A stretch of 64,000 nucleotides of DNA from the NCBI GenBank assembly GCA_903825105.1, contig CAIJZI010000009.1, positions 216 to 64,215 on the forward strand. Direction: 5' to 3'. Of this stretch, positions 7,929 through 49,690 are shown piece by piece (position 1 is the stretch's first letter; each line of letters begins with the position of its first letter). The notes beneath the pieces are model-generated. The model had not been told where the DNA came from. It ran no database searches and saw nothing but the letters and a program-made list of their open reading frames with translations. The position numbers and the translations under genes are program-made. The stretch is from an uncultured bacterium. GTDB taxonomy: Bacteria; Patescibacteriota; Minisyncoccia; Phycocordibacterales; Phycocordibacteraceae.

Positions 7929-8966
7929 TTAATTTCCGTATTTACCTTGGCAGATTGGCAGATAACGGTCTGTAGCATAAGCAGAAGAAAAACTTTGATG
8001 GCTTAATACACACACCGCGGCGGCGGCACTACAATGCACATCACCTGCAGCTTTTACGCATTTATTGAGAATTGTTGCATCACCACCAGCAGTAAATCCA
8101 CTTCCGTTTGGATTGAATCCTTTTTTACAATTCAGTGCAACACCTGGCGTTCCAACTGCTTCTTCGCATACAGGGATGTTATAGCAGTCGCTGTTACTCT
8201 GTAATAAAACCTGGTAGGCTCCTGCTGCGGTCGAAGCTTTTCCTGCATACTTACCACCAAGATCTTTATTCCAGAACTCATTTTCATTGTAATTGTCCTT
8301 ATTCGTTTTCCCGCAATCGCTCTCTCCTTTTGCTATACAGGCGAGCAAATTCGCAGTTTTTATCGAGACACCGGGCACAGCGTCGACAATAGTTTGAGGA
8401 TTACAAGCGTTGCCAGAAACATTGTTCACAGAAAAATCGAGCGTCTGCCCTGTCGCTGTAATACCCGTGATATCCGCCTCATTTAATTTATCTGTCGGTA
8501 AAGATCCTGCCTGCTTAAGACATAATTTGCCTTCGCCTTTTATAAGTGACGACCATGCGTCCCACCCTGGTACATCTGGGTGATATAAGGTCACCATCAC
8601 CGCATCGACAATAAGCCACGCTGAAACCGCGACGACGAGACCGATAACCGTATCCAAAATCGCTTTACCCTCTTTTGTTCTCACCGCTGGCGCGTCGGGA
8701 TGTGTGACGATATTAAAACCCGCGAAAGCGATGCGTATTGGCACGAGTAAAACAATGCCGAGAGTGAGGAGGAGTTGTATGACATTATTAACAACAGTAA
8801 TCAACATCGCCCAATTACCTGGACACAAATCAGAATCTGCAATACCCGAAGCACTCTCTGGAGGAATAATAGGCCCCCAGAACGGGATAGCAGCGTGTGC
8901 AGCTGCCGGCAATATGAGCGCGGTGGATATTAATAGAAAAAATAAAAGAAATGTGCGAGAACGCAT
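7929..8966 (-). CDS. Secreted/membrane protein with a VirB2/TrbC-like N-terminal module and a Cys-rich C-terminal domain, possibly lysozyme/transglycosylase-like
   Basis: Signal peptide, TM-KEGK-TM module like the 44.9-47.6 kb array, then many Cys and an ES...AYQ motif. Confidence 0.4.
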   Translation of the reverse strand: MRSRTFLLFFLLISTALILPAAAHAAIPFWGPIIPPESASGIADSDLCPGNWAMLITVVNNVIQLLLTLGIVLLVPIRIAFAGFNIVTHPDAPAVRTKEGKAILDTVIGLVVAVSAWLIVDAVMVTLYHPDVPGWDAWSSLIKGEGKLCLKQAGSLPTDKLNEADITGITATGQTLDFSVNNVSGNACNPQTIVDAVPGVSIKTANLLACIAKGESDCGKTNKDNYNENEFWNKDLGGKYAGKASTAAGAYQVLLQSNSDCYNIPVCEEAVGTPGVALNCKKGFNPNGSGFTAGGDATILNKCVKAAGDVHCSAAAAVCVLSHQSFSSAYATDRYLPICQGKYGN

Positions 8967-9134: not shown

Positions 9135-9683
9135 TTACTGAAACACGCAGAGGCTCGTGACGATCGGCTGCATAATCGCATAAATCCACCCGACGCAGAT
9201 GCCAGCGATAAGAAGATAGGCAGTACTGATAAAAATCTTTTGCACCACTCCCTTTCCTTTCCCAATTGCGACTAAACGCTCTTTCAGTGATTCGTAGAGA
9301 GCGCCAAAAAAGGTGAAAGCGATATAACAGAAGCTCACGAAGAGAAGACTGCGGAGCGCGCTGTCGCTCGAGAATGTCCGCCCTACAGAACTACAATATG
9401 ATTGTGAGAGAAATACGATAAGAGAAAGTTCTGCACTCACGAGGAAAAAAGCTTTAATAACAGTGAAGCCAACGCGAACCATTAAGATAACGAGCAGTGC
9501 GCCAACGGCGAGTAAAACGAGCGGCCACATCCCGTTGACGAACCACGCACGCAAATAACTCGAAGTAGCAATGATAATAGCACCAACAATAATCACCAGA
9601 CTGATCGGCACCACGCGCTCGATCTGATGGAGCGTCTCTCCGCCAAGTGAAATCGAATGATCTTTTTTCTGTTCTTCGTTCAT
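9135..9683 (-). CDS. Hypothetical multi-pass membrane protein
   Basis: Hydrophobic helices; start trimmed to an internal Met to avoid overlap with the ABC-F gene. Confidence 0.4.
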   Translation of the reverse strand: MNEEQKKDHSISLGGETLHQIERVVPISLVIIVGAIIIATSSYLRAWFVNGMWPLVLLAVGALLVILMVRVGFTVIKAFFLVSAELSLIVFLSQSYCSSVGRTFSSDSALRSLLFVSFCYIAFTFFGALYESLKERLVAIGKGKGVVQKIFISTAYLLIAGICVGWIYAIMQPIVTSLCVFQ

Positions 9684-9699
9684 TATTTTATTATCTCGC

Positions 9700-11160
9700 T
9701 TAGACGCCCAAATCCAAAATGTCATCGATGCGAATCTGCTCAACAAATTCTGGCACATGCGAGACGAGAATCATCGCACCGGTATATTGATCAAGCGCTT
9801 TGGCTATAATCGGCAAGTGACGGAAGTTGATATGGTTTGTCGGTTCGTCGAGAATAAGAAGCCCGGGTCGCTCGAGTACGAGCGAAGCGAAGGCGACAAG
9901 CCCTTTCTGCCCTTCTGATAAATTGCCTATTTTTGTCTGCATCACATTCGCCATCAGTAAGAAGCCAGCGGCGGTGGCACGCAATTTTTGTTCATCGGGC
10001 TGACCCATCGCTTTCATCAGTGCATCAAAAACGGTTTGATCGAAATCAAGTGTAGAAAAATCTTGGCGGTAATAACCAACCTTCACGCCCTCAGCTATCC
10101 CCGCGCCTTCGGCTGTGCCACGCGCGATGTGTTCAAGCAGGGTACTTTTCCCGATACCGTTTGGCCCGCGCAGGAGAAGATGATTATTTTTACGCAGAGA
10201 GATATTCACTTTTTTCTTCACCGGTTTTTTACCATTAAAAATACTGCAGGAAGTGAGAGCGAGCACTTCGCCACTTAACTTTTCTTGAGCAGGGATCGTG
10301 AACGGCCGAATCGGTGCATCTTCCTTTCGCACATCAACCTTCGATTCTTCCATTTCTTCAACCTCCGTACGCATCTTCTTCGCGACGAGACGCATCTTAC
10401 CGCCCTTCTGCGCGAAGAAGTTCGCTTTATCTTTATTCTCTTGAATTTTTTTCTCGAGCTGTGCGTTCTTCTTATTTTCTCGATCGATACGCGCGACAAT
10501 ATCGCGCTGTACATCGTTATAGTTCCCCGCATACTGCTCGATCTTGTGCGTGAAGACATCGAGATACAAAACACCCGTCGTAAATTTATTTAAGAAGTGT
10601 GCGTCGTGCGAGATCACGATGCAGGAATGTTGGTAATCGACGAGAAATTTTGTTAAATGCTCGATACCGGCGGTGTCGAGATTGTTCGTCGGTTCATCGA
10701 GAAGAAGAAGATCCGGGTCTTGAATCAGCGCTGAAGCGAGGAGAAGTCGCGCCTGTTGGCCACCAGAGAAGGTGCTCATCAATCGATCGTGCAGCTTCTC
10801 GTGATGTTTTAAATTCACTACTTCGAGCACCGCGTCGATTCTTGGGTCGATGTCATAAACCGGCTTATCAAAACATTTTAAGAAAAATTCGCGAACAGTG
10901 AGCGCGAGATCCGCGCGCGGGATAACCTGTGGAGCTGTCGCCACTCTCACACCACGCGACTGATGTATCTCTCCCGATTCTGGCTTTAAGACTCCTGCCA
11001 TCAAGTTGAAAAGCGTCGACTTCCCGGCACCGTTCTGACCCATTACCGCGAGCTTCATCCCGCTACGCACAGGGAAATCTACTTCGTCGAGTATTGGTTT
11101 ATTGTGCCCGTATCCAAACGAGACCCCTTCAAATCGTAAAATACTTTCTTCTCGACCCAT
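9700..11160 (-). CDS. ABC-F family ATPase (two tandem ABC domains, no TMD)
   Basis: Two Walker A sites (GQNGAGKST, GPNGIGKST), two signature motifs and a charged linker. Confidence 0.8.
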   Translation of the reverse strand: MGREESILRFEGVSFGYGHNKPILDEVDFPVRSGMKLAVMGQNGAGKSTLFNLMAGVLKPESGEIHQSRGVRVATAPQVIPRADLALTVREFFLKCFDKPVYDIDPRIDAVLEVVNLKHHEKLHDRLMSTFSGGQQARLLLASALIQDPDLLLLDEPTNNLDTAGIEHLTKFLVDYQHSCIVISHDAHFLNKFTTGVLYLDVFTHKIEQYAGNYNDVQRDIVARIDRENKKNAQLEKKIQENKDKANFFAQKGGKMRLVAKKMRTEVEEMEESKVDVRKEDAPIRPFTIPAQEKLSGEVLALTSCSIFNGKKPVKKKVNISLRKNNHLLLRGPNGIGKSTLLEHIARGTAEGAGIAEGVKVGYYRQDFSTLDFDQTVFDALMKAMGQPDEQKLRATAAGFLLMANVMQTKIGNLSEGQKGLVAFASLVLERPGLLILDEPTNHINFRHLPIIAKALDQYTGAMILVSHVPEFVEQIRIDDILDLGV

Positions 11161-11314: not shown

Positions 11315-11746
11315 ATGGCTGACACGATCTTTGACTTGGAGAAGTTTATCCTCGGTTCAGGAGAACTGGATCGGATGAAAAAATCAATCAACCTTGCTCT
11401 TGCGCATTTCTATGGATATTTCCGTCAGGTGTATGAGGCAGTTATGTCTGAGAAAGATCCTGGAGTGGAGTCATGTATCATTGTCAATCTCCGCATTCAG
11501 TACCATAAGACAATTGATTTTGTTGCCAAGAATCAGACATACAATATAATAGTTGGCGATAAGGTCATATCCACAGGGACACATGCCCTAGCGGAACACC
11601 TTTCGCCTGAAATTACGCTCCAGTGCTATCTTCGCTTTGGCGATTTCATGGAGAAGATGTTTCAAATCTATCCGCCGCACCAAGAACTTCTCGATCGTCT
11701 GGAGACCTTCTACGCCGCCGCGGAGCGCGCGAAGAAGCAGTCCTGA
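11315..11746 (+). CDS. Hypothetical protein
   Basis: ORF followed by an intrinsic terminator. Confidence 0.4.
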   Translation: MADTIFDLEKFILGSGELDRMKKSINLALAHFYGYFRQVYEAVMSEKDPGVESCIIVNLRIQYHKTIDFVAKNQTYNIIVGDKVISTGTHALAEHLSPEITLQCYLRFGDFMEKMFQIYPPHQELLDRLETFYAAAERAKKQS

Positions 11747-20477: not shown

Positions 20478-20510
20478 TGAAATGGTTATCCACAGCGTCG
20501 TTATAGATAC

Positions 20511-38677: not shown

Positions 38678-38764
38678 CACAAAATAGCTATCCACAGAAC
38701 TCAAAACTACTTATTGACTTATCAGTCTTCCTGGCATAAGATATGACTGTATTTCTATGGAGGG

Positions 38765-44080: not shown

Positions 44081-44166
44081 GCTGGGGTGGCGAAATTGGT
44101 AGACGCATTAGCCTTAGGAGCTAACGGAGCAATCCATTGGAGGTTCGAGTCCTCTCCCCAGCACCA
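44081..44166 (+). tRNA. tRNA-Leu(TAG), type II, CCA encoded
   Basis: Acceptor GCTGGGG/CCCCAGC, anticodon arm TTAGC-CTTAGGA-GCTAA, long variable arm. Confidence 0.85.
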
Positions 44167-44263
44167 CTTCACTAAAGCTACACAGTGCACAGAACTTGAC
44201 TTTATAGCCGTTTCGTGTATTATAGATAGCGGAGAGCCGATTCTTCGGCTTAAGGAGCTTGAA

Positions 44264-44893
44264 ATGGCATTTTGGAATTGGGTAAGAAATAACCAGAGAA
44301 CGGTTTGGAATATCGTCCTCGGGTTCGTGTGGATCGTTCTCCTCTTCAACGCCTGCTCCGCGGTTTCCGTCGTTAATGTCGGGCAAATCGGAAGTTGGAG
44401 TTGGGCGAACGCGATCCCGTTCGCGGCATTCTTCGTGATCGGGTTCATCCTGATCGCTGTGAACGCTAGAACCATCGGCGCGCCGACTGCGCGAGTCCTC
44501 CGTATCGCACTCGGGACGGTTATTGTCATCCTCTTTTTGGCAATGCCGTTCGAGGAGCGTGTCCGCGGGGTGTTTAACCCGCAGCAGTCTCACAACTCGC
44601 TGCAAGCGCCGGCGACATCACAGCCGGCACTTGCTATCGGGGTCTGCCCCGACGCGAGCAAGAACGAGACACGGCAGTGCCTCGTCGGGTCTGACTGGTC
44701 CAACTGGATCGGTCTGGCAGAAGGTACTGCTGACAACGGCCTCCACTTCTGCTCCAACGCTGGCGGAGAGCGCGAGCAGTCCCCAGACGAGAGCGAAACA
44801 ATGTTTCGCTTTAAGTCAAAAGACGGCGGGAATCTCGTAAAAAAGTACCGCCTCTTCGCGACTAGCGAAGAATGCGAGGAAGCAACTATCTGA
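44264..44893 (+). CDS. Hypothetical membrane protein with a Cys-containing extracytoplasmic tail
   Basis: Start set at internal Met (MAFWNW) downstream of tRNA-Leu; four TM helices. Confidence 0.4.
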   Translation: MAFWNWVRNNQRTVWNIVLGFVWIVLLFNACSAVSVVNVGQIGSWSWANAIPFAAFFVIGFILIAVNARTIGAPTARVLRIALGTVIVILFLAMPFEERVRGVFNPQQSHNSLQAPATSQPALAIGVCPDASKNETRQCLVGSDWSNWIGLAEGTADNGLHFCSNAGGEREQSPDESETMFRFKSKDGGNLVKKYRLFATSEECEEATI

Positions 44894-44946
44894 AGCTCTT
44901 TCAAAAAGGCCGCGCCAACAAGCGCGGCCTTTCATTTTTTTATTCT

Positions 44947-45237
44947 CTATTTAGAAGCAGGAACGAAAGTGTTGTTCACATAATTCCCCACCCCGGGGAA
45001 AATGCCAAGCACTGTATTCATAATCCCATACGCGCCGAAGATGACGACGAGCCCTACAATGCCCCACATAATCGCTTGCCTCCCTTCCTTTCTCTTCGTT
45101 TCATTACCCGCATTGCGCACAAACTCGAACACACCCCAGAGAAATACGACAAAGGCACAGGCAGAGAGCAGCAGAATAATCGGATTAACGATCTGCACGA
45201 GTACCTTGCCGAGGAATTGGTTTAGAACTTCGGTCAT
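44947..45237 (-). CDS. VirB2/TrbC-like small membrane protein (array member 6)
   Basis: TM1, ETKRKEGRQAIMWGIVGL, TM2; paralogous to neighbours. Confidence 0.5.
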   Translation of the reverse strand: MTEVLNQFLGKVLVQIVNPIILLLSACAFVVFLWGVFEFVRNAGNETKRKEGRQAIMWGIVGLVVIFGAYGIMNTVLGIFPGVGNYVNNTFVPASK

Positions 45238-45244
45238 CTAGCGA

Positions 45245-45622
45245 TTAATGAATCTGTAGTCCGGATGTTGGCGCACCGCCTGCTGGGCCAGAATTATTAC
45301 CGAAACTGAAGGTGCCGGTGAGAATATTCACGAGTCCCCAGACCGAGACCATCACGAAGAAGCCGACAAGCCCCCAGAGCATCAGGTTCTTACCCTTCTC
45401 TTTTACATCATCTCCACCGGACGCCCCGAGAATGAAGGTGTTAAAAGCGCCCCAAAGGAATACGATAAAGGCGATCGCGAAGATAATCGGAACGAGAATA
45501 TTATTAATCGTGCTGATGATAAACGAACCGACATCATTAAGATTGTTAATAGCAGCAGCTGATGAGACGAGCGGTAGCGCGAGCAGAGTGACAAGTGAGG
45601 AAATGGTAAGGGCTTTTTTCAT
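45245..45622 (-). CDS. VirB2/TrbC-like small membrane protein (array member 5)
   Basis: Signal peptide, ILVPIIFAIAFIVFLWGAF, DVKEKGKNLMLWGLVGF, then a Gly-rich tail. Confidence 0.5.
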   Translation of the reverse strand: MKKALTISSLVTLLALPLVSSAAAINNLNDVGSFIISTINNILVPIIFAIAFIVFLWGAFNTFILGASGGDDVKEKGKNLMLWGLVGFFVMVSVWGLVNILTGTFSFGNNSGPAGGAPTSGLQIH

Positions 45623-45704
45623 AAAATAAGTAATCTAATAACAGGTTAATTGTAGCTTTTATAAGAGACTGGTCAATGCGGTTTTTATCTATTTGTGGAT
45701 ATTA

Positions 45705-46253
45705 CTAGTTTGTACAACTGTCCGTACTTACACCGTCTGGACAAGTTCTACCATTGGGACAATAACAATCATTGTTCAGTATTATCCCGCGAGGAGTCTC
45801 AGTCACCGGCGGCTCAGCACAGGTATCTGTACTTGGATCACAGTATCCGCTACTGCACAAAATGTCATTGTAATTACACTTCACCCCATTCTGCAGATTG
45901 CCTGAAGCGCTCGAGGCAGGGCTGCCAGCAGCAGGAGTTTGGGTATTAGAATTTGTTGCCCCAGTATTAATAGTTGGGAACGCGGGGACATTGGTCGAGG
46001 TGAGCCCAAGCGTGCCCATAAATATCTGCACGATGCCCCAGACAGAGAAGAGAAGGACGAAGCCGACGATACCGTAAATGGCGAAGGTCTTCCCTTCTTT
46101 TTCTGCTTTATCTGAATCGTGAATAAAATACTTGTAAATCCCCCAGACGAATACTAAGAATGCGACCGAGATCAGAGCCGGTATTAAAATGCCGTTGATA
46201 ACCCCGACGACACTGCTCGCATATCCTTGAATATAAGTCGCATTTATTCCCAT
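45705..46253 (-). CDS. VirB2/TrbC-like membrane protein with Cys-rich C-terminal domain (array member 4)
   Basis: Conserved TM-KAEKEGK-TM core, then a Thr/Ser-rich linker and eight Cys. Confidence 0.5.
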   Translation of the reverse strand: MGINATYIQGYASSVVGVINGILIPALISVAFLVFVWGIYKYFIHDSDKAEKEGKTFAIYGIVGFVLLFSVWGIVQIFMGTLGLTSTNVPAFPTINTGATNSNTQTPAAGSPASSASGNLQNGVKCNYNDILCSSGYCDPSTDTCAEPPVTETPRGIILNNDCYCPNGRTCPDGVSTDSCTN

Positions 46254-46268
46254 AGAATGTTGTTATTT

Positions 46269-46619
46269 TTAAAATCTAAGCTGAATACTCGTGCCAGGTA
46301 TCGCGCTCGGCATCATCGGAGCTCCGTAGCCAGCGAGACCGAAGGTGTTCGCGACGACATTCACGAGCCCCCAAAGCGAGAGCATAATAGCGAAGCCAAC
46401 AATGCCCCAGAGCACGAGCTTATGGCCAGCTGCAACTGCTTTTTCATCGCCATTTGAATAAATGTATGCTTTATACACACCATAAATAAAAACGATAAAA
46501 GCGAGCGCGAAGATAACGGGAACTAAAATATAATTAATGACATATAAAATCTGATTGCCGAGATAACAGATATACCCGGTGCAGCCGTTCCCGATCGAGA
46601 CGCCAAAAGAAATGTTCAT
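46269..46619 (-). CDS. VirB2/TrbC-like small membrane protein (array member 3)
   Basis: ILVPVIFALAFIVFIYGVY...KLVLWGIVGF core. Confidence 0.5.
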   Translation of the reverse strand: MNISFGVSIGNGCTGYICYLGNQILYVINYILVPVIFALAFIVFIYGVYKAYIYSNGDEKAVAAGHKLVLWGIVGFAIMLSLWGLVNVVANTFGLAGYGAPMMPSAIPGTSIQLRF

Positions 46620-46638
46620 AAAATTAAGTATAGCCGAA

Positions 46639-46899
46639 TTAAGAGCCCGGGTTGATGCCGAGCGTGGATAACAAGAGATTCACGAAGCCCCAGACCGAGA
46701 AGAGTACGACCATGCCGAGAATGCCCCAGAAGGCGAAATCCTTCCCTTCTTTCATTTTTCCCTCATCGCCTTTATTGTTGAAGAAAAAATATTTTAAAAT
46801 CCCGTATAAGAACGAGAAGAATGCGAGTGTAGCGATAAAAGGTACGACAATCGTGTTCACGATCACGATGAGCTGATTAACGGTTTCAGCAAAGGTCAT
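46639..46899 (-). CDS. VirB2/TrbC-like small membrane protein (array member 2)
   Basis: Start at internal Met MTFAETV; core TIVVPFIATLAFF...KMKEGKDFAFWGILGM. Confidence 0.45.
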   Translation of the reverse strand: MTFAETVNQLIVIVNTIVVPFIATLAFFSFLYGILKYFFFNNKGDEGKMKEGKDFAFWGILGMVVLFSVWGFVNLLLSTLGINPGS

Positions 46900-46901
46900 A
46901 A

Positions 46902-47654
46902 TTATTGTTGTACCGTACTCGCGCCTGGGAAATAAGGGTTCGTGCCGCTTGGCACAGACGAGGTAGTGTCCCCGCCGGTCGAGAGCGAATTCACCGTCGC
47001 TTGGATCCCTATCGAGATCACCTGCGCGCCGAGGAGAATAAGCCCGCCGATGACGGTCCAGAGCAGAGCTTGACGAGCCTTTGTGATGTCTCCGGGAACA
47101 CCTTGTGCCTTCACGAACATCCACCCGACCCAGATCAACATAAAGACAACAACCATCGCGCCGATCTTCACGACGAATCCAAGAACTTCACTCACGAGTT
47201 TCGGGAGATCTGTTTTTGAACCAAGGGGATTGATGAGGGTGATTTTATCTCCAGACGGAACTGAAGCAGCATCAGTAGATTGATTGCCTTTAGTACCCAC
47301 AGCGTCGCTTGATTGATTGCCGCTCGTATTGGTAGCCCCAGATTTGACACAAACATTTTTGACGCAAGAAAGGCCGTTCGAGCAGGTGTCCTCGCACGCA
47401 TTTCCTTCATAAGCAGCTATACTACAAGCGCCTTTCACACACTGTGCACAACCAGAGATGCTTCCTTTGTTAGCAGAGGTGCACGCTATCCCGCAAGAAG
47501 AATTGTTTACACAAGTAAGGTCGTGGCCATTATACTGACCGGTACAAGGTTTACTCGCCGAACAGGCATCGCCTGGTTTTGAATCCGCAAATGCTATTGG
47601 CAGAAAAGAAAAGAATCCGACGATGATTACTAATGCGATAAAATATTTTTTCAT
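46902..47654 (-). CDS. Secreted Cys-rich protein with a C-terminal VirB2/TrbC-like TM module (array member 1)
   Basis: Signal peptide, ~20-Cys domain, Ser/Thr linker, then VVVFMLIWVGW...DITKARQALLWTVIGG and a Ser/Thr tail. Confidence 0.5.
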   Translation of the reverse strand: MKKYFIALVIIVGFFSFLPIAFADSKPGDACSASKPCTGQYNGHDLTCVNNSSCGIACTSANKGSISGCAQCVKGACSIAAYEGNACEDTCSNGLSCVKNVCVKSGATNTSGNQSSDAVGTKGNQSTDAASVPSGDKITLINPLGSKTDLPKLVSEVLGFVVKIGAMVVVFMLIWVGWMFVKAQGVPGDITKARQALLWTVIGGLILLGAQVISIGIQATVNSLSTGGDTTSSVPSGTNPYFPGASTVQQ

Positions 47655-48949
47655 TGTAAGAGGGCGCGAAGGGCGCTTTCGGCGCTCGAGAGCGCCATGG
47701 TTACCGAATATTTCCCGCTCACCACGCTGTTAATCATACTCGAGAAAACAGAATCAACATTTGTTCCTGATGGAGACAGCCAACCTTTGGTGTAGAGGGC
47801 TTCTGAATATGCCACTGCCAAGATAGGGTCAGAGGGCGTCTTCGCGAGCTGGCCTAGATTCGCGGGAGCGAGACCGGTCAGAGACGCTGAAGGGCCCTGC
47901 GCGTCGCTACTCGCGAAGAGCGTCGCGACTTGATATGCCCCAGAAGGGTTCTTCGCGCCGCGCGAAATCATAAATGAATAAAGTAGCCCATACGCGTTTT
48001 TAGTAGACCCCGTGAGCGGCTGCGGGAGTGGCGAGACCGCGAAGTCGAGATTTGGATTCGCTTTTTTAAAGTACACAGCTTCTGAAGCATATCCGATATA
48101 AAGCGCAAGATCGCCCGACAAAAACGATTGTTGCGAATCGGGGAGTGATGTATTCCAGGTGTAAGAAACCTTCGACGGGTCAGCGAATTGTGTGTAGAAA
48201 TTAAGCACTGCCTGCCCCGGCGGAGTTCCGCTCGAAGAATTCATACCGAGATCTGCGGTCATCAGTCCATTTGAAGCGTACGAAGAAATCGGCACGCCCG
48301 TTTGTAGAAATAACGACGAGACAATCGCGCGCGCGTTGCGCACATTGTCGTAGGCTCCAAGAGCGATAAGTCCGCGCGAGATCTGGCGAGAAGAAGTGAG
48401 AAGAGCGACATTCGGTACGAGGCCGGTTAGCGCTTCCCAAGAAGCGGGTGGTCGCGCGATACCATCTGATGAGAGGATTGCGCGATTCGAGAAGAGAACG
48501 AGTGGGTCAACGAGAAATGGCACACCATAATAACCGTCAGAAGCGGCAAGAAGACTTCCCTCATTCACAAAAGCGCTCGAGAAGGTTGACGCAGGGAGCG
48601 TCGCAGACGGTATTGGGGTAATAAACTTCGCGAGAGAAAATAAGTTTTCCTGCGAATCGAGAATGAGGTCTGGCGAATTCCCGGTCGCTATTGCTGATGC
48701 GAGCTCTGCGGGGAGTGTCGCTGGGTCTTTTTGTACATACGAAACATTCTTCAATTCTTTATTTGACTGCGTGGTAGTGGCGAGAACGGCGTCCATACTA
48801 CTACTCGGCAAGGTTCCCCAGATAACCACCGTCCCTATCGCATTACTGCTCGTACTTTTCCCCGAATAAGTAGCGAATACGAAGAGACCGATAAGTGCAC
48901 AGAGTCCGAACACACCGAGTAAAATACCTTGGAAGAGGGAAATTTTCAT
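47651..48949 (-). CDS. Extracellular solute-binding protein, family 1 (ABC-type sugar SBP-like)
   Basis: Signal anchor; VVIWGT and YYGVPF motifs resemble MalE-type SBPs; 4-nt overlap with the first array gene. Confidence 0.55.
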   Translation of the reverse strand: MKISLFQGILLGVFGLCALIGLFVFATYSGKSTSSNAIGTVVIWGTLPSSSMDAVLATTTQSNKELKNVSYVQKDPATLPAELASAIATGNSPDLILDSQENLFSLAKFITPIPSATLPASTFSSAFVNEGSLLAASDGYYGVPFLVDPLVLFSNRAILSSDGIARPPASWEALTGLVPNVALLTSSRQISRGLIALGAYDNVRNARAIVSSLFLQTGVPISSYASNGLMTADLGMNSSSGTPPGQAVLNFYTQFADPSKVSYTWNTSLPDSQQSFLSGDLALYIGYASEAVYFKKANPNLDFAVSPLPQPLTGSTKNAYGLLYSFMISRGAKNPSGAYQVATLFASSDAQGPSASLTGLAPANLGQLAKTPSDPILAVAYSEALYTKGWLSPSGTNVDSVFSSMINSVVSGKYSVTMALSSAESALRALLQ

Positions 48950-48953
48950 AAAA

Positions 48954-49490
48954 TCATGGTGCGTTAAATAATATACCGTAATGATGCGGGCCCGCGCGGA
49001 ATGACTTCACCTTATGAAATCCTCCATTTATAAAGAGCGCTTCTGCTTCGTGCTCGGTCACAACCTTTTTAGCATCAGGGCCCATACCGCTATAGCTCCC
49101 CGCCCAATCGATCATTATGAATTTTCCTTCGGGCTTTAACACGCGGCGAATCTCTGCGAGAAGTCCATAGCGATTCTCGATTTGGAAAAGAGTGTTGGAC
49201 AAGATAACTGCGTCGAGTGAGGCGTCGCGCAGGTGTGTCCCGCCAAGTTTCTCGATGTCACCCCAAACCGTGTCGATGGTGCTCTGATGCTTCGCGTGTG
49301 TATTTAATTTTAAATGTTTCAAGACATCTTCTTGAATATCGATCGCGTAGACCTTCCCCGTGTCGCCGACAATCGCTGCAGCCGCGCGCGCGTAGTGGCC
49401 ACTCCCGGTGCCGAAGTCGCCGACCTTCATCCCCTCGCGTAATCCTAAATGCAAGATGTTTTCTCGCGGCTCGCTAAATGTTCCTGCCAT
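48954..49490 (-). CDS. Class I SAM-dependent methyltransferase
   Basis: Motif I VGDFGTGSGHY and motif post-I AIDI; start chosen at the Met just after an upstream terminator. Confidence 0.7.
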   Translation of the reverse strand: MAGTFSEPRENILHLGLREGMKVGDFGTGSGHYARAAAAIVGDTGKVYAIDIQEDVLKHLKLNTHAKHQSTIDTVWGDIEKLGGTHLRDASLDAVILSNTLFQIENRYGLLAEIRRVLKPEGKFIMIDWAGSYSGMGPDAKKVVTEHEAEALFINGGFHKVKSFRAGPHHYGILFNAP

Positions 49491-49690
49491 ATATATAAAA
49501 ATAGCACGCCAAGAAGGCGTGCGGTGTGCAATCAACAGAAATTAGAGCCGTAGGGAGAGAATGATGGAATGACCAGCAATCTCTCCCTTTTTGCAGTCCT
49601 CGGCGCCAGGACTTACATACGGCACCCGCTTTCGGAAAATTGAGCAATTAGTGCCCAAGCGGTGATGCCCGATATGGGCTGGTACCCATG
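49491..49690 (-). promoter_or_regulatory. Structured ~200-nt 5' leader ending in an intrinsic terminator abutting the MTase start codon (riboswitch/attenuator-like)
   Basis: Putative promoter TTGCAT-16-TATTCT (49724-49697), several hairpins, terminator gcacgcc-ttctt-ggcgtgc plus U-run at 49493-49522. Confidence 0.35.

Follow-up and report, generated by a model that had tools for sequence, protein, structure and literature searches.

Results and Discussion

Organization of the Array

We analyzed a 64,000-nucleotide stretch of DNA, hereafter the window, from an uncultured Patescibacteriota bacterium (assembly GCA_903825105.1, contig CAIJZI010000009.1, positions 216–64,215). On its minus strand lies an array of six small genes (slots 1–6, g1–g6) whose products resemble in architecture the VirB2/TrbC pilins of type IV secretion systems (T4SS). 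The array is led by a gene for a solute-binding protein (SBP)-like protein (Table 1). The original prediction had placed six consecutive genes with a common two-helix core in one operon with the SBP gene, and both points were borne out, the SBP-pilin linkage proving to be deeply conserved. Its further expectation of overlaps of about 4 nt along the cluster held at the SBP-g1 junction, where stop and start share ATGA, and failed at all other junctions of the array, which are gaps of 2, 19, 15, 82, and 7 nt. A methyltransferase gene precedes the SBP start by 4 nt, and a hairpin marks the end of the array. GC content is even across the window, and the housekeeping genes found there include gyrA, IF2, topA, relA/spoT, parB, ftsA/Z, enolase, PPDK, and CTP synthase, so the array region is part of the core chromosome.

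Table 1. Features of the array and its unlinked paralog, with amino-acid identities to the window in the 14 closest GTDB loci (GyrA 82–91% identical where it is on the contig; L019, whose contig ends inside the array, is excluded from the g5 and g6 ranges). The length of g2 is counted from its ATG; the open reading frame (ORF) lister starts at an upstream GTG.
Feature	Coordinates	Strand	Description	Identity to window
Methyltransferase gene	48954..49535	-	First gene of the conserved block; likely true start ATG at 49490, giving 178 aa and matching orthologs	69–79%
SBP-like gene	47651..48949	-	432 aa, N-terminal transmembrane (TM) anchor; Pfam SBP_bac_8 and SBP_bac_1	59–70%
Pilin slot 1, g1	46902..47654	-	250 aa; signal peptide, 12-Cys N-terminal domain, Ser/Thr/Gly linker, two-helix module	37–58% (best local alignment)
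Pilin slot 2, g2	46639..46899	-	86 aa; bare two-helix module	41–62%
Pilin slot 3, g3	46269..46619	-	116 aa; conserved N-terminal Cys pair	53–70%
Pilin slot 4, g4	45705..46253	-	182 aa; pilin module and variable 96-aa C-terminal tail with 8 Cys	37–69%
Predicted internal promoter, slots 5–6	45649..45701	-	TATCCACA box 45701–45694; -35 TTGACC and -10 TACAAT within 45676–45649	
Pilin slot 5, g5	45245..45622	-	125 aa; cleavable signal peptide and undecorated module	67–75%
Pilin slot 6, g6	44947..45237	-	96 aa; bare module	65–72%
Hairpin terminator	44905..44932		GC-rich; 11-bp stem with 8 GC pairs; T/A runs flank both strands	
Unlinked seventh paralog	7929..8966	-	345 aa; signal peptide, pilin module, putative 12-Cys lysozyme/SLT-like C-terminal domain	

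Family Assignment of the Small Proteins

The six array proteins and the seventh paralog, which was found where the original prediction had placed it, align over about 80 residues with 16–44% identity in the core. This core consists of helix 1 (..VN.I.VP....AF.VF.WG..), a charged loop of Gly, Lys, Asp, and Glu, and helix 2 (LWGIVG.VV..S.WG.VN). A motif set of N-x-I-x-V-P, F-x-V-F-x-W-G, L-W-G-I-V-G, and S-x-W-G-x-V-N is common to the six array proteins and is less full in g1 and the seventh paralog. The two-helix core was recovered by structure prediction as well. The AlphaFold2 (AF2) model of g5 is a helical hairpin (H28–69/H71–104, core pLDDT 80–90), and that of the seventh paralog places the helices of the pilin module at H52–88 and H93–128.

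Pfam PF18895 (T4SS_pilin, gathering threshold 26.6 bits) matched all seven proteins, with E-values from 8.5e-5 to 1.6e-9 in the array. The highest scores were those of g5 (38.1 bits, E 1.6e-9) and g6 (38.0 bits, E 1.7e-9), followed by g4 (34.1 bits, E 2.8e-8), g2 (33.4 bits, E 4.8e-8), and g3 (26.7 bits, E 5.8e-6). The seventh paralog (26.0 bits, E 1e-5) and g1 (23.0 bits, E 8.5e-5) fell just under the threshold, and orthologs of both (P0276–P0279 and g1 of locus L005, respectively) are recorded with PF18895. By these profile matches, the six genes are members of PF18895. A profile derived from the window retrieved 29,475 representative proteins at E ≤ 1e-3 from a library of 1.84 billion.

More distant relationships pointed to conjugation proteins. 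NCBIfam NF045849 (Mbov_0395 family pilin-like conjugal transfer protein, curated cutoff 40 bits) aligned with g5 over the whole 80-residue profile at 37.0 bits (E 1.9e-9), below the cutoff, with g4 at 28.3 bits (E 1e-6), and with the seventh paralog at 16.9 bits; such a near-miss indicates relatedness, not membership. Among 65 diverse relatives of the family, 13 matched TrbC/VirB2 PF04956 at E ≤ 1 (best E 1.1e-5) and 11 matched DUF2976. The VirB2/TrbC-type identity originally proposed for the array stood in that every protein matched PF18895, and it fell short at the PF04956 threshold (27.9 bits). We regard the six genes as VirB2-like in architecture with remote sequence support, membership of PF04956 not having been demonstrated.

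Single chains carrying 2–17 tandem pilin modules with no stops between them also occur in the family (P0121, P0134, P0123, P0130; L045 9925–12387), examples being 820 aa with 8 copies and 1,775 aa with 17 copies. Beside the gene of one 8-copy protein lie a gene for a PKD-repeat protein and another two pilin genes, of which one carries a PKD fusion. No mention of such fused poly-pilins was found in the accessible sections of PMC12102498 (Quinonero-Coronel et al. 2025).

Slot Orthology and Conservation

Arrays of the window and two related contigs were compared by all-against-all BLAST, and the best foreign match of each slot was the same slot. Same-slot identities were 63% for g1 (in the core), 50–53% for g2, 53–67% for g3, and 73–74% for g6. 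Orthologs in the corresponding slot occur in dozens of genomes for each of the six proteins. The nearest genome locus belongs to a Candidatus Kaiserbacteria metagenome-assembled genome with GyrA 91% identical, which places the organism of the window in the class Paceibacteria, and the window's SBP and g5 are also present on ENA metagenome contigs. With 1,220 homologs at E ≤ 0.001, the best 120 of which are 67–100% identical, g5 is the most conserved member of the array.

Selection was assessed from amino-acid identity relative to flanking genes, because dS would saturate at the available divergence (75% amino-acid identity for g5). Slots 5 and 6 were conserved to the same degree as the SBP and the methyltransferase (Table 1), and slot order and number were constant in the six-slot loci of the closest relatives (L008–L021). 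Lengths of slots 2, 5, and 6 were nearly constant across loci, with occasional slot-2 outliers. Variation between related genomes was concentrated in the length and Cys content of the decorations of slots 1, 3, and 4. The N-terminal extension of slot 1 measured 41–242 aa and held 0–12 Cys, and the C-terminal tail of slot 4 measured 10–359 aa and held as many as 26 Cys. In the window itself, the domain of g1 that had been described as holding about 20 Cys contains 12. Because each slot has its own orthologs and identities are comparable to those of flanking genes, these comparisons show the array to be an old, fixed set of six different predicted subunits under purifying selection.

The SBP-like Leader Gene

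The SBP-like protein exceeded the Pfam gathering thresholds of SBP_bac_8 (77.9 bits, E 1.4e-21) and SBP_bac_1 (59.4 bits, E 7.6e-16), and its closest solved relative is a distant sugar-type SBP (4r9f, E 3e-7). A search with the window's SBP against one genome per GTDB species yielded 37 loci, titled Kaiserbacteria, Paceibacterota, Nomurabacteria, Parcubacteria, and Moraniibacteriota, with SBP identity from 70% down to 22%. Pilin modules downstream of the SBP gene were counted with a local hidden Markov model (HMM) of the pilin core. In all 36 informative loci, that is, those whose contig extends past the SBP gene, this gene directly preceded 2–7 pilin modules on the same strand, and 4–7 modules were present in almost all loci whose contig runs past the array. 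The same pairing was found in 8 further contigs. The distance from the SBP stop to the first pilin start was mostly -4 to +6 nt.

Neither the window nor any of ten homologous contexts annotated with Pfam had an ATP-binding cassette (ABC) permease or ATPase gene (BPD_transp, ABC_tran) adjacent to the SBP gene. The upstream neighbors were themselves regular: a methyltransferase gene preceded the SBP gene in most loci, and gyrA lay farther upstream in most loci with a long enough flank. We distinguished three settings. The first is gyrA-methyltransferase-SBP-pilins (L003, L005, L052, L054), and the second is NTP_transferase-SBP-pilins (Doudnabacteria L050, the complete Berkelbacteria genome CP011213 L051, and L053).

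In the third setting, found in L044 and Berkelbacteria L049, the order is PrgI, (TraC-like), VirB4-type ATPase, X, SBP, four pilins, unknowns/cell-wall hydrolase, pilin. All genes of this block lie on one strand and overlap or are closely spaced, and the ATPase matches P-loop_TraG/AAA_10/DUF87. At the level of gene order, this PrgI-VirB4 setting is a direct link from the detached module of the window to a predicted type IV secretion machine. The assembly route of the array, given as unknown in the original prediction, is narrowed by this sharing of an operon between the SBP-pilin block and PrgI with a VirB4-type ATPase.

That an orphan SBP-like gene constantly leads the pilin module, and in some lineages belongs to a virB4 operon, is the main new result of this analysis. 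No mention of an association between an SBP and a T4SS in the candidate phyla radiation (CPR) was found in the literature searched, including the accessible text and supplements of PMC12102498. The SBP gene is the first gene of the array, is translationally coupled to the decorated g1, lacks a partner ABC permease, and in Berkelbacteria-like lineages is part of the PrgI-VirB4 operon. We suggest, tentatively and at somewhat less than even confidence, that an SBP_bac_1/8-type protein may belong, as a conserved part so far unrecognized, to the pilin module of Patescibacterial type IV secretion across several classes.

Three observations concern this leader and the proteins around it. The N-terminal anchor of the SBP is unusually conserved for a signal anchor (MK.S.FQ.IL.G.FG..AL.GLFVFAT. 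in the orthologs of L008–L036) and may make a specific intramembrane contact, and the most distant SBP homologs (L040–L044) carry a lipoprotein signal (LSGCG) in place of the anchor. The methyltransferase is a class I S-adenosylmethionine (SAM)-dependent, UbiE/Methyltransf_11-like enzyme (Pfam Methyltransf_11/25/31, E 1e-14 to 5e-18). This cytoplasmic protein is the constant upstream neighbor of the SBP-pilin block in Paceibacteria; in loci of the Doudnabacteria and Berkelbacteria types, the NTP_transferase gene takes its place. Both loci of the third setting encode, between the VirB4-type ATPase and the SBP, a protein of 460–530 aa (L044 8393–9781, L049 8425–10011) with faint PEGA/beta-propeller matches only; a PEGA-domain exported protein is also present in the T4SS locus of Ca. 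Southlakia epibionticum (SEML1_0005).

A Conserved Predicted Promoter before Slot 5

Among sigma-70-like sites of the region, the best (TTGACC-N16-TACAAT, score 10/12) lies in the 82-nt gap before g5. The pattern TTGACS-N16-18-TAYAAT occurs once in the window, with 0.08 occurrences expected. Alignment of the 110 nt upstream of slot 5 from 22 loci gave a footprint of TATCC(A/C)CA, about 14 nt, ATTGAC(C/G), 17 nt, TACAAT or a variant, about 35 nt, and ATG. The gap before slot 5 (55–157 nt) is the largest in most six-slot arrays. Given the sigma-70-like site, the footprint, and the largest intergenic gap, slots 5 and 6 have a conserved predicted promoter of their own. Such a promoter fits slot 5 as an abundant subunit, given its lack of decoration, its signal peptide, and its conservation, the highest in the array.

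The TATCCACA box upstream of this promoter resembles a DnaA box, with 8 of the 9 nt of the classical one, a resemblance that we treat as a lead. Five TATCCMCA sites, mostly intergenic, occur in the window (45694–45701 on the minus strand, 227–234, 11568–11575, 20487–20494, and 38689–38696), with 1.65 expected, and none of 100 shuffles reached five. The DnaA consensus TTWTNCACA was not enriched in the window (6 found, 3.75 expected), and a replication origin (oriC) near the array was dropped as a candidate on this ground. In addition, pilin modification and cell-cycle control could come in through the methyltransferase of the operon and the DnaA-box-like site.

The Seventh Paralog

The gene of the seventh paralog adjoins miaA-parB-relA-topA. 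Its C-terminal domain, called possibly lysozyme-like in the original prediction, received moderate support. A lysozyme-like fold with a catalytic Glu-Ser motif was found, and the positional ortholog P0318 carries Pfam SLT (PF01464) after its pilin module, with PF18896 in P0311. The seventh paralog itself gave no Pfam SLT match at E ≤ 1. We conclude with moderate confidence that the domain is lysozyme/SLT-like, which suggests a VirB1-like wall-opening role for this protein, anchored via the pilin module.

Comparison with Related Systems

Arrays of PF18895 proteins, the VirB2-like pilin family of Patescibacteria, are a kind already published. In the T4SS cluster of Ca. S. epibionticum, predicted pilins have been described, and SEML1_0014–0019 are six PF18895 proteins, all essential in transposon sequencing (Tn-seq) (Wang et al. 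2023, PMC10633639). A search of 3,035 Patescibacteria genomes with PF04956, PF18895, and CONJScan profiles found VirB4 in 2,417 of the assemblies, Kaiserbacteria and most Paceibacteria assemblies included, and pilins near virB4 in 1,135; 441 arrays of 2–11 pilin genes, with about 25% identity, were counted in 383 genomes (PMC12102498). These arrays and that of the window share the PF18895 family, tandem divergent two-helix proteins, a monoderm CPR host, and signal peptides in some members. Identity within arrays averages 25% in the published set and is 16–44% in the window, and the S. epibionticum array also has six members. That array lies inside a T4SS cluster and has no SBP gene, whereas the array of the window stands apart from T4SS core genes, behind gyrA and a methyltransferase, and is SBP-led. 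Pairing with an SBP was not found in the literature searched, nor were fixed-slot orthology or an internal promoter in the literature on Patescibacterial pilin arrays, as far as its accessible sections extend.

Classical TrbC/VirB2 pilins (A. tumefaciens VirB2, RP4 TrbC) and F-type TraA are, like the window proteins, small, with two hydrophobic helices and a short charged loop, and they have both ends outside, as predicted for the window proteins. Such pilins are often produced with a leader peptide, share their system with a lytic transglycosylase (VirB1), and depend on a VirB4-containing machine for assembly. The window proteins differ in lying under the PF04956 threshold and in having no detectable similarity to single VirB2/TraA sequences or solved pilins. 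Moreover, their host lacks an outer membrane, and they come as many paralogs per genome, some with large appended domains. The best sequence match outside the CPR was the Mbov_0395 family of a Mycoplasma integrative and conjugative element (ICE), which belongs to a monoderm MPF-FATA-type conjugation system; Patescibacterial VirB4 has been related to the MPF-FATA class (PMC12102498). Unlike the chromosomal multiparalog array of the window, the Mycoplasma protein belongs to a mobile element.

The tandem virB2 paralogs of Bartonella and Anaplasma T4SS, read as antigenic or host-range variation (cited in PMC12102498), share with the window several divergent VirB2-like genes in tandem and a host-dependent organism. 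The window slots differ in being conserved orthologs under purifying selection.

Another point of comparison is the archaeal bindosome (Sulfolobus Bas), a surface assembly of sugar-binding proteins and small pilin-like proteins. There, as in the window, a sugar-type SBP lacking an adjacent permease is coencoded with several small pilin-like membrane proteins. The Bas proteins are type IV pilins with class III signal peptides and PilB/PilC-type assembly, not VirB2-like hairpins, and we know of no sequence relationship between them and the window pilins.

Proposed Function and Alternatives

The locus is one operon, of a SAM-methyltransferase, a membrane-anchored SBP-like protein, and six distinct VirB2-like PF18895 proteins, in a Kaiserbacteria-like organism. 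We consider it probable that the six proteins are subunits of a heteromeric pilus or conduit built by a T4SS. Each subunit would insert in the cytoplasmic membrane as a helical hairpin with its termini outside and its charged loop in the cytoplasm, a topology that fits the signal peptides and the disulfide-type Cys-rich domains at N or C termini. The subunits would be used by a monoderm-type (MPF-FATA-like) T4SS encoded elsewhere in the genome and built into a heteromeric pilus or envelope-spanning conduit. Slot 5, together with slot 6, would be the likely bulk subunit, because it is undecorated, most conserved, and served by its own predicted promoter. Slots 1, 3, and 4, with their decorations, would contribute minor subunits that present variable domains at the surface. 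Given its translational coupling to slot 1 and the lack of an ABC permease partner, the SBP-like protein would most likely not belong to an ABC importer but work with the pilin assembly, either as a receptor for a ligand or host glycan or as an assembly factor outside the cytoplasm. The seventh paralog would anchor its lysozyme/SLT-like domain via the pilin module for VirB1-like opening of the wall.

A number of results weigh against a T4SS pilus. As the original prediction had stated of VirB4/VirD4, the window holds no T4SS ATPase among its ORFs of at least 480 aa. These encode TopA, RelA/SpoT, a major facilitator superfamily protein, CTP synthase, an ABC exporter, PPDK, and IF2, identified by Pfam, as well as GyrA and an ABC-F type protein, identified by translations and syntenic orthologs. 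Neither the 64-kb window nor the Pfam-annotated flanks (±8–10 kb) of Paceibacteria-type loci yielded a T4SS ATPase or channel gene, and when the large flank ORFs (at least 450 aa) of the 37 SBP loci were screened for T4SS genes, only L044 was positive; for the organism of the window, we infer T4SS dependence from other lineages. PF04956 scored far below its threshold with g5 (14.3 bits, E 0.05) and g6 (12.5 bits, E 0.18). A profile of the seven cores against all PDB sequences returned only chance TM hairpins (LMBD1, cytochrome oxidase II; E ≥ 0.02) and no pilin. Foldseek with the g5 AF2 model gave nothing below E 2.2 in the PDB, the helical hairpin being a generic fold and too generic to discriminate. 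The 65-sequence family profile reached a probability of <1% in hhalign against single VirB2 (pTiC58) and TraA (F) sequences, a test of low power, and tblastn of g5 against 72,556 plasmids found no match. Signal-peptide-like N-termini are limited to g1, g5, and the seventh paralog, and chains of 2–17 fused modules are unusual for a polymerizing pilin. In the literature searched, we found no report of an imaged T4SS pilus in Patescibacteria; a 2025 review treats such a pilus as a possibility and speculates on a conduit for uptake from the host.

Part of this evidence would also suit a complex independent of any T4SS, in which the six two-helix proteins, with 12 TM helices, and the orphan SBP would act in uptake or surface display and the module would be an anchor or oligomerization unit. 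The module stands apart from T4SS genes, both in the window and in every Paceibacteria-type locus, no ABC permease is encoded close to the SBP, and comparison with solved pilins gave no significant match. Modules fused to one another in up to 17 copies, or to SLT/lysozyme-like (seventh paralog), PKD, and small Cys-rich EB/DUF7107 domains, are likewise what an anchoring unit would lead one to expect. We nevertheless hold such a complex to be unlikely, since the SBP-pilin block occurs inside the PrgI-VirB4 operons of L044 and L049, pilins lie near virB4 in over a thousand assemblies (1,135; PMC12102498), and the family has sequence links to TrbC and ICE pilin-like families. Array copy number also varies from 4 to 7, so that no 12-TM stoichiometry is conserved.

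The original prediction had read the array as a diversified host-interaction repertoire, in line with the interchangeable, fast-diversifying surface subunits proposed for Bartonella and Anaplasma VirB2 paralogs. Low identity among paralogs within the array (16–44%) and the strong differences in slot 1, 3, and 4 decorations among related genomes agree with antigenic variation, an idea that has been raised for Patescibacteria (PMC12102498). For the cores, this view did not hold. For each slot, the best match in other genomes falls in the corresponding slot, order and number are fixed in L008–L021, the numerous g5 homologs include close ones, and no recombination-type repeats or cassettes were seen. 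Slots 5 and 6, at 65–75% identity where GyrA is at 82–91% and the SBP at 59–70%, are as conserved as neighboring housekeeping-type genes and are not fast-evolving. Antigenic variation thus appears quite improbable as an account of the array, with room left only in the appended domains. Finally, chance or compositional similarity among unrelated small hydrophobic proteins might be suspected from the generic hairpin and from many weak off-target Pfam matches to TM families (UPF0114, Ceramidase, bacteriorhodopsin). With the specific shared motif set, PF18895 E-values down to 1e-9, the 29,475 proteins found by the window profile, and synteny conserved across classes, we regard it as already refuted, its probability being negligible.

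Other Features of the Window

The terminator of the array is bidirectional and also serves a convergent ORF on the plus strand (44087–44893), whose product is a multi-TM protein with a C-terminal domain that contains Cys. This ORF overlaps tRNA-Leu (44081–44166) at its start, its real start probably lying well downstream of the listed GTG, and it has no equivalent at the same position in L003 or L005. Next to the seventh paralog, across tRNA-Trp, an ORF on the minus strand (9135–9758) encodes a 207-aa multipass membrane protein with no Pfam match and overlaps the 3' end of the ABC-F gene ORF. Ten tRNA genes are dispersed over the 64 kb, with tRNA-Leu and tRNA-Lys just downstream of the array and tRNA-Trp adjoining the seventh paralog. 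An Rfam scan of the whole window returned tRNAs only and no other RNA family.

Conclusions

Herein, we describe an array of PF18895 pilin-like genes that adds nothing new in kind and whose comparative anatomy yields testable leads. The fixed set of six nonredundant subunits argues for a heteromeric structure over an antigenic repertoire. Slot 5, undecorated and under a predicted promoter separate from that of the preceding slots, is a candidate major pilin. That an SBP-like partner is invariably present, in some lineages within the virB4 operon, suggests that the work of the machine includes binding of a ligand or glycan. In the single species tested, epibiotic growth depends on the T4SS, and the function of the Patescibacterial T4SS has been called "completely unknown" (PMC11665869). 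If the SBP binds host-derived sugars or glycans at a pilus or conduit, the pairing described here would give concrete genetic support to a role of the CPR T4SS in host attachment or nutrient capture, rather than in DNA export.

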